From NCBI GenBank assembly GCA_017864995.1, contig GCA_017864995.1_4097.1: 64,000 bases of DNA. One strand, given 5' to 3'. The notes under the pieces are model-generated. The model had not been told where the DNA came from. It was given only the letters and a program-made list of their open reading frames with translations, and searched no databases. The translations under genes and the position numbers were made by a program. Shown piece after piece: positions 9,148 through 9,217 of this stretch (position 1 is the first letter of the stretch; the number at the start of each line of letters is the position of its first letter). This stretch comes from a phage.

Positions 9148-9217
9148 GCGGCATCGCAAGGTGCGAGGTGAAACTTCCGATTTCCACCGCTGGTCGATTC
9201 GATTTCGACATGCCGCT
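9148..9217 (+). ncRNA. tRNA-like element (atypical; anticodon-like loop TCC)
   Basis: 7-bp acceptor-like stem gcggcat/atgccgc, canonical T-arm gtcga-TTCGATT-tcgac, anticodon-like arm with loop cttccga, reduced D-arm; not a canonical tRNA. Confidence 0.35.

Follow-up and report, generated by a model that had tools for sequence, protein, structure and literature searches.

What is the small cloverleaf at the start of the tRNA cluster of this jumbo coliphage: an overlooked tRNA gene, the remains of one, or a structured signal of another kind? The element occupies positions 9148–9217, on the plus strand, of the 64,000-nucleotide phage sequence analyzed here (GenBank assembly GCA_017864995.1, contig GCA_017864995.1_4097.1; hereafter, the window), and shares its strand with the rest of the cluster. 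The window is Asteriusvirus-like: the jumbo coliphage fEgEco12 is 99.5% identical to the region, and approximately 35 Asteriusvirus-type records match it, 121Q and PBECO4 among them. Judged by sequence comparison, the element is a member of a conserved, odd-shaped family of glycine-tRNA genes in giant Escherichia coli phages, and it is probably a functional, non-canonical ("compact-core") tRNA-Gly(UCC) that would serve GGA codons.

Architecture of the 9148–9217 element

The element is 70 nt long and has a cloverleaf fold. The first-pass annotation of this DNA, made from the letters alone, had described a 7-bp stem enclosing a mini hairpin, an anticodon-like arm with a UCC loop, and a T-arm with the loop TTCGATT, and had called the stretch GC-rich for this genome. 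All of these parts are present in the sequence, and the GC content is indeed 57% within the element against 34.8% across the whole window. The parts are listed below; A4, TH47 and Turkey5 are related phages whose alleles are compared in the next section, and glyT is the corresponding host gene.

9148–9154, plus strand: 5' strand of the acceptor stem, GCGGCAT; seven of seven positions paired; G1, C2 and G3 belong to glycine identity pairs
9155–9165, plus strand: mini D-arm, a 3-bp stem CGC/GCG with the 5-nt loop AAGGT; abuts the acceptor stem, leaving an 8–9 linker of 0 nt
9166, plus strand: linker A, the position-26 equivalent; A in three alleles, C in TH47
9167–9173, plus strand: 5' strand of the anticodon stem, GGTGAAA; 7 bp against the canonical 5
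9174–9180, plus strand: anticodon loop CTTCCGA, with U33, anticodon UCC (9176–9178), G37 and A38
9181–9188, plus strand: 3' strand of the anticodon stem, TTT-C-CACC; one bulged nucleotide (C9184 or C9185) after the third pair
9189–9192, plus strand: variable region GCTG; 4 nt in the window and A4, 2 nt in TH47 and Turkey5
9193–9209, plus strand: canonical T-arm, GTCGA/TTCGATT/TCGAC; five of five pairs covary; T-loop the same as in host glyT
9210–9216, plus strand: acceptor-stem 3' strand, ATGCCGC; pairs with 9148–9154
9217, plus strand: discriminator U73; invariant in all alleles; a bacterial glycine identity element
9218–9222, plus strand: 3' trailer CAAAA; CCA is not encoded

Compared with a canonical class I tRNA, the element has the expected 7-bp acceptor stem stacked on a 5-bp T-stem and a 7-nt TψC loop, with every pair supported, most of them by covariation, and its 7-nt anticodon loop, C-U-UCC-G-A, is canonical. 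The departures lie in the core. In place of a 2-nt 8–9 connector, a 3–4-bp D-stem and a 7–11-nt D-loop, it has 0 nt, 3 bp and 5 nt, respectively, and in place of a 5-bp anticodon stem it has 7 bp and a bulge. The GG at 9160–9161 in the D-loop is the equivalent of G18G19. Together with the U-U-C-G-A of the T-loop, it is predicted to be able to form the G18–ψ55 and G19–C56 elbow contacts.

We asked how often such an arrangement arises in this sequence using a descriptor that calls for an acceptor stem of 7 bp abutting a T-stem of 5 bp with the loop TTCNANN, together with an anticodon arm. The descriptor matches the window seven times, always on the plus strand in the tRNA cluster, and one of these matches is 9148–9216. 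Across 100 dinucleotide-preserving shuffles, the acceptor and T-arm components gave a mean of 0.04 matches, and none that also had the anticodon arm. A chance origin of the cloverleaf is excluded.

Conservation, covariation and distribution

The 70-nt core is identical in 10 GenBank phages and in approximately 11 further ENA, NCBI and Logan assemblies. In an 11-genome alignment, none of the 71 columns across the element (9148–9218) varies, against 19 in 126 flanking bases; ph0011 carries approximately 12 differences in the flanks and none inside. The A4 variant, also present in two related assemblies, differs from the window copy by three changes, namely an anticodon-stem G-C that becomes G-U and a compensatory double change in the first T-stem pair, from G-C to U-A. 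The A4 copy has other genes on its flanks; its resemblance to the window sets in precisely at G1, and past the trailer only the promoter is alike. This confinement of similarity to the element and promoter indicates that the cloverleaf itself is a conserved, movable unit.

The first-pass annotation had proposed a covariance-model scan, and a search for compensatory changes in relatives, as checks on the fold. The outcome of the scan depends on the model: Rfam is negative, whereas a model built on the element's cloverleaf from the window and A4 copies only (R1) finds more divergent alleles. R1 detects one in TH47 (contig L019, 1373–1440; 33.3 bits, E = 3e-6) and one in Turkey5/JNE01 (contig L055, 11045–11112; 38.9 bits, E = 7e-8, with no mispairs), both aligned end to end and 53–66% identical to the window copy. 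All compact alleles have a 0-nt gap between acceptor and D-stem, a 3-bp D-stem, a 5-nt D-loop with GGU, a single linker base, a 7-bp bulged anticodon stem with the loop xUUCCGA, a 2–4-nt variable region, a canonical T-arm with UUCGAxU, and a discriminator U. Even the anticodon-stem bulge sits at the same place in all four alleles, as C, U or A.

The compensatory changes are plentiful. Aligning the four alleles puts 97.7% of cells in pairs, and at 18 of the 22 pairs both partners have changed in a compensatory way. None of 500 shuffles reached this level of pairing and covariation, and controls with slid partners pair at 36–51%. These double changes fall in five of the seven acceptor pairs (G1–C72 and G3–C70 being invariant), all three pairs of the mini D-stem (CG/AU/GC and so on), five of the seven anticodon-stem pairs and the whole T-stem. 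The exceptions to pairing in TH47 are a U-U in the middle D-stem pair and a C-A in the outermost anticodon-stem pair. Moreover, when the alleles were aligned with MAFFT blind to structure, RNAalifold still found the acceptor stem, the mini D-hairpin and the 7-bp anticodon stem with its bulge. The residues that do not change are the loop UUCCGA, U73, G1–C72, G3–C70, the D-loop GG (within a GGT found in four of four alleles) and the T-loop UUCGA. The structure is under purifying selection, with covariation.

We define these genes as the Asteriusvirus compact tRNA-Gly(UCC) family, with the window type, A4, TH47, Turkey5 and JNE01 as members, by a full-length model match, the anticodon UCC, G37, GGU in the D-loop, U73 and a site in a phage tRNA cluster; the window copy shows every one of these features. 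A refined model (R2) scores it at 88.5 bits across 9148–9217, and the next best hit in the window, at 24.6 bits, is a canonical tRNA.

Sister phages of the 121Q type carry a different tRNA-Gly(UCC) gene, of canonical length and 220 bp away, which scores 41.7 bits with Rfam and has the loop UUCCGA and the trailer U-CAAAA. The 121Q type occurs in 23 records and the window element in 11, with no overlap; TH47 has its own compact allele. Among the Asteriusvirus records examined, none is without some Gly(UCC)-type gene, and in 11 of 14 carrier genomes no tRNA-Gly(UCC)-like gene other than the compact one was found. We considered whether strict mutual exclusivity reflects simple replacement of one gene by the other, an idea weakened by the canonical tRNA-Gly(UCC) genes of A4 and Turkey5 (see below). 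These canonical genes, of RaK2/T4-like type, are unannotated in the A4, Turkey5, JNE01, RaK2 and K64-1 records.

Wider searches returned no further alleles. In IMG/VR, the pattern ACTTCCGATT..GCTCAAAA retrieved 121Q and chance matches only; two architecture patterns (GGT-N8-A-N3-TTCCGA-N15/17-TTCGANT) gave 23 loci, none with the compact fold; and a protein-anchored scan returned 121Q only. A metagenome scan found one contig, carrying the 121Q-type gene, and a protein search found two clusters whose contigs hold window-type and A4-type copies only. BLAST with the TH47 and Turkey5 alleles recovered themselves and JNE01 only, and the 12 kb to each side of the RaK2 tRNA-Gly contain no compact copy that R1 detects.

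A putative glycine adaptor and its rivals

The identity set of E. coli GlyRS comprises U73, G1–C72, C2–G71, C35 and C36 (PMC9976931). The window copy carries all five elements, and U73, G1–C72, C35 and C36 are invariant across alleles. Its first four acceptor pairs and its T-loop equal those of host glyT, and the anticodon loop, CUUCCAA in the host, differs at position 37 only. The host gene is present in 5421 of 5426 E. coli genomes at a median of one copy per genome. The phage appears to have use for the anticodon: among the ORFs (open reading frames) of the window, GGA makes up 22% of Gly codons, alongside AGA at 23% of Arg, ACA at 36% of Thr, TCA at 31% of Ser and ATA at 25% of Ile, and the other phage tRNAs match similarly enriched ACA, TCA, AGT and ATA codons. 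A UCC tRNA fits this pattern, in which the phage's canonical tRNAs correspond to enriched codons. The pattern resembles the tRNA set of phage T4.

The lack of an encoded CCA is shared with undoubted tRNAs. An N73-CAAA trailer without CCA follows the compact Gly gene, the canonical tRNA-Asn (12601–12672) and both tRNA-Thr genes (13974–14046 and 14054–14126), so the same 3' maturation route must already operate; the U-CAAA ending is also found in the Turkey5/JNE01, A4 and 121Q-type genes. CCA is encoded in the tRNA-Ser(UGA), tRNA-Ser(GCU), CAU tRNA and D-armless genes of the cluster. CCA-less tRNAs of T4 undergo 3' trimming followed by CCA addition. At the other end, the upstream small ORF (8930–9141, plus strand; a homologue of 121Q gene 120) ends in a stop codon 6 nt ahead of G1, which makes joint transcription of the two probable. 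In Turkey5, the compact gene begins 7 nt past the CCA of a tRNA-Leu(UAA).

In the mechanism we propose, the element would be transcribed together with the upstream small ORFs of the tRNA cluster, and RNase P would create its 5' end by cutting at G9148. The A-rich CAAAA trailer would be trimmed to U73, as must happen for the neighboring CCA-less tRNA-Asn and tRNA-Thr, and the host CCA-adding enzyme would complete the 3' end. Host GlyRS would then charge the RNA with glycine via U73, G1–C72, C2–G71, C35 and C36, and the charged RNA would supplement the single-copy host glyT tRNA on GGA (and GGG) codons, heavily used by this AT-rich phage. The L-shape would probably be kept by a shifted core, in which the anticodon stem gains 2 bp, the D-stem loses 1 bp and the 8–9 linker is gone, such that the D-loop GG still reaches the canonical T-loop; the same solution is seen in mt-tRNASer(UCN), the mitochondrial tRNA, and in tRNAPyl.

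Both of these precedents resemble the element in architecture only. In mt-tRNASer(UCN), a single nucleotide links acceptor and D-stem, the D-loop is small and the anticodon stem has 6 bp; the molecule keeps G18G19 and the TψC loop and is still L-shaped (PMC7609411). The mammalian "type I" form shares with the element a shortened acceptor–D connector, small D-loop, long anticodon stem and short variable region, and the D-loop GG and canonical UUCGAUU T-loop of the element parallel its G18G19 and TψC loop. It differs in having a linker of 1 nt rather than 0, and an anticodon stem of 6 bp rather than 7 bp with a bulge, and the element has a 3-bp D-stem. Unlike mt-tRNASer(UCN), the element is a coliphage gene whose anticodon is for Gly and whose identity nucleotides are those of bacterial tRNA-Gly, and it would depend on E. 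coli enzymes. The tRNAPyl of Methanomethylophilus alvus lacks an acceptor–D linker, has a 4-nt D-loop, and has a long anticodon stem broken by an unpaired base on its 3' side (PMC7609411). The element is alike in its 0-nt gap, its D-loop size (4–5 nt across the two) and the 3'-side interruption of its long anticodon stem. However, tRNAPyl is without G18G19 and TψC, has the anticodon CUA and needs PylRS, where the element has GG, UUCGA, UCC and GlyRS identity, and the two have no sequence relationship. As genetic-code expansion has made clear, tRNAPyl functions with the E. coli ribosome and EF-Tu.

The element thus has the 0–1-nt gap, 4–5-nt D-loop and anticodon stem longer than 5 bp of compact-core tRNAs; their variable region is 3 nt, against 4 nt in the window and A4 and 2 nt in TH47 and Turkey5. 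Its UCC anticodon, Gly identity and phage origin set it outside that group proper, and it is an analogue of mt-tRNASer(UCN) and tRNAPyl rather than a member of either class. A further precedent is the engineered D-armless "mini HisT", which HisRS, EF-Tu and the ribosome of E. coli all tolerate (PMC11551756). Like the element, it has a reduced D-region, but it is artificial, has lost the D-arm wholly and needs a pnp mutation for stability, whereas the element is natural and keeps a mini D-arm. Canonical phage tRNA-Gly(UCC) genes of the T4, RaK2 and 121Q types share the UCC anticodon, U73, G1–C72, location in a tRNA cluster and presumed GGA role, and the 121Q type further shares the UUCCGA loop with G37 and the U-CAAAA trailer. 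They differ in the distance from the acceptor 5' strand to the anticodon loop, 24 nt against 19 nt in the element, and in passing Rfam; the 121Q-type gene is not detected by the compact-family model. The compact-core shape is not known to occur in ordinary bacterial tRNAs, and our literature searches found no earlier description of such phage tRNAs. If it decodes as proposed, its fold would be the first non-canonical one among natural elongator tRNAs of a bacterial translation system, and the family would be a natural counter-example in the best-studied of all translation systems. It would also offer orthogonal-tRNA engineering an interesting scaffold that evolved naturally and is adapted to E. 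coli.

Several observations weigh against a working tRNA-Gly. ARAGORN with default settings does not call the element, and Rfam RF00005 (gathering threshold 29 bits) gives no match to it even at E ≤ 10. It thus fails the formal Rfam tRNA threshold, and its best score within the tRNA clan is to tRNA-Sec, at 18.9 bits against a cutoff of 47. Single-sequence folding favors an alternative structure that, at −25.4 kcal/mol (the minimum free energy), is 1.5 kcal/mol more stable than the cloverleaf at −23.9 kcal/mol; with a folding z-score of just −1.8, which is not decisive, thermodynamics by itself is unconvincing. The distinct alleles number just four, all within one phage genus, and TH47 has A2–U71 where the other three have C2–G71. 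G37 beside C36 is unusual, the host glyT tRNA having A37. Finally, A4, Turkey5 and JNE01 also hold a canonical RaK2/T4-like tRNA-Gly(UCC) (A4, contig L003, 2599–2674; Turkey5, contig L055, 12003–12078), so the compact gene is not always the sole decoder, which hints at an additional or different role.

With respect to position 37, G37 within the loop UUCCGA was also observed in canonical phage tRNA-Gly(UCC) genes on unrelated IMG/VR contigs (L061, 2353–2424; L073, 31–105), and G37 may be a recurrent feature of phage tRNA-Gly(UCC). With respect to detection, relaxed ARAGORN settings do label the element tRNA-Gly(tcc), among 15 calls in the window at -ps85 and 39 at -ps80; as these settings yield approximately nine and 30 extra calls, respectively, we gave this label no weight. 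A published tRNAscan run on fEgEco12 gives six canonical tRNAs, none of them Gly (PMC13070987). None of the 11 GenBank records with the element annotates an RNA there, and WPEC3 and WPEC5 place a 34-residue coding sequence over it. These data expose a gap in what tRNAscan-SE, ARAGORN and Rfam detect: the gene is present but unannotated in at least 14 published jumbo-phage genomes, two of which have a spurious coding sequence over it, and the phages have been reported as being without tRNA-Gly.

Could the element be a selected tRNA-like RNA whose main job is something other than decoding? We regard this as possible but doubtful, in either of two forms. As a decoy or nuclease-resistant stand-in, it would be directed against a system, of the host or of a rival phage, whose target is tRNA-Gly(UCC) or Gly-tRNAGly, for instance an anticodon nuclease or a TacT-type acetyltransferase reading U73/G71. 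Phage tRNAs are reported to evade anticodon nucleases by anticodon-loop changes (PMC10264068), and TacT recognizes U73 and G71 (PMC9976931). As a punctuation mark, its tRNA shape would make RNase P define the 3' end of the upstream mRNA. The retention of the compact gene beside a canonical tRNA-Gly(UCC) in three phages suggests a non-redundant role; it is also the most diverged tRNA-type gene of the window relative to Turkey5 (61% identity, against 73–100% for canonical tRNAs), and its G37 departs from the A37 of the host. Yet a pure processing signal requires neither an invariant anticodon loop nor GlyRS identity nucleotides, no tRNA-Gly(UCC)-specific defense system was identified in this analysis, and most carriers yielded no second gene of this specificity in a genus where every record examined has one. 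The RNase P processing signal suggested by the first-pass annotation is probably real as a side effect, since every tRNA embedded in a polycistronic transcript has to be excised, but it leaves the conserved anticodon loop and the glycine identity unexplained. A tRNA that resists nucleases yet continues to decode would refine the adaptor reading and would not truly rival it. In this refinement, which we offer tentatively and judge rather unlikely, the compact-core elongator would work as a glycine adaptor while its body and G37 persist as a poor substrate for tRNA-targeting defense nucleases or toxins of the host or of rival phages. It would represent a new route of immune evasion through the tRNA body, beyond the anticodon loop, and the family lends itself to a concrete test of the idea that tRNA-targeting immunity drives phage tRNA bodies to diversify.

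Of the first-pass suggestion of a decayed tRNA-Gly, the likeness to tRNA-Gly and the reduced D-arm stand; decay does not. A functionless pseudogene with a partly lost D-arm would explain why default ARAGORN, Rfam and tRNAscan miss the element, why its D-arm is short and its anticodon stem irregular, and why CCA is not encoded. It is nonetheless improbable given the invariant core within variable flanks, the fact that every A4 substitution preserves the structure, and the three independent divergent alleles that keep the compact architecture with covarying pairs, and the CCA-less CAAA ending also belongs to bona fide Asn and Thr tRNAs. The first-pass annotation had also raised a structured terminator, and a GC-rich structure between an ORF stop codon and a strong promoter at 9229 might suggest an intrinsic terminator or attenuator hairpin closing the upstream operon. 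However, the stem is succeeded by TCAAAATTTACA, which is no U-run, and a scan of 7400–10400 found no terminator-like site, the trailer being CAAAAUUUACA; on these two grounds the terminator was rejected. Four helices that meet in a junction, all of them covarying, and a conserved loop of 7 nt are not what a terminator looks like, and in Turkey5 the element lies 7 nt past another tRNA gene; we therefore regard this reading as highly improbable. Least credible of all is that the conservation reflects a small protein. ORFs of 32–39 residues do overlap the element, one of them the coding sequence annotated in two records, but no frame holds a conserved peptide across the four alleles, stop codons interrupt several frames, all three A4 changes are non-synonymous in the annotated frame, and the flanks needed to complete the ORF are not homologous in A4, TH47 and Turkey5. 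The comparison of frames across alleles refutes it.

The surrounding tRNA cluster and other features

The neighborhood of the compact gene contains the following features, in addition to the upstream ORF.

8748–8918, 10252–10416, 10413–10577 and 10574–10738: copies of a small protein family beginning MTH(K/E)EW
9229–9256, plus strand: perfect sigma-70-type promoter, TTGACA-16-TATAAT with TG, for downstream genes and outside the element
10055–14127, plus strand: tRNA-Ser(UGA), tRNA-Ser(GCU), a CAU tRNA, tRNA-Asn and a pair of tRNA-Thr(UGU), called by ARAGORN and Rfam
10149–10227 (with CCA to 10230): D-armless tRNA-like gene, anticodon UCU, directly after tRNA-Ser(UGA)

The six canonical tRNAs of the cluster thus all lie on the plus strand. 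The gene at 10149–10227 is, besides the compact Gly gene, a second non-canonical one. Its acceptor stem has 7 bp, just 7 nt stand where a D-arm would be, and it has the anticodon loop CUUCUAA, a long variable arm, a canonical T-arm and an encoded G73-CCA; it scores 32.6 bits with the Rfam tRNA model. Its anticodon arm is that of the neighboring tRNA-Ser, the anticodon excepted. The same slot is occupied by a canonical tRNA-Arg(UCU) in ph0011, UE-S1 and a metagenome contig. In TH47, a different canonical tRNA-Arg(UCU) comes shortly after the phage's own promoter, where no tRNA-Ser was found. The D-armless gene combines an Arg anticodon with a type II body resembling that of tRNA-Ser, so that insertion of Ser at AGA is conceivable. 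This neighboring gene suggests that the phage lineage tolerates or exploits non-canonical tRNAs more generally.

The promoter that the first-pass annotation placed at 9229 is confirmed as a perfect sigma-70 site. It is one of two promoters with 12 of 12 consensus positions located less than 150 bp apart (9229–9256 and 9373–9401), each comprising TTGACA, a spacer of 16–17 nt and TATAAT, with a TG extended −10 on the first. The MTH(K/E)EW proteins are paralogs of 54–60 residues, named for their N-terminus and labeled PHROG 10970 in one record, whose genes are interleaved with the tRNA genes. In each of the four genomes inspected for this feature (the window, 121Q, A4 and TH47), one copy is found just upstream of the Gly(UCC) gene. 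HNH-type genes were also encountered: in TH47, an ORF with an HNH-type motif (HHIDENILNNSPENLEILSASEHARIH) directly follows the compact Gly allele (contig L019, approximately 1473–2415), and in Turkey5 an HNH homing endonuclease is annotated beside tRNA-Asn. Homing endonucleases may drive cassette-like swapping of tRNA alleles in the cluster. Of the 18 ORFs with 230 residues or more, the 10 lying furthest upstream were scanned with Pfam, which revealed no tRNA-processing, repair or synthetase gene. Elsewhere, the window also encodes a phage sigma-70-family factor with regions 2 and 3 (25066–26031) and two RCC1-repeat proteins on the minus strand (51221–52345 and 53106–54311).

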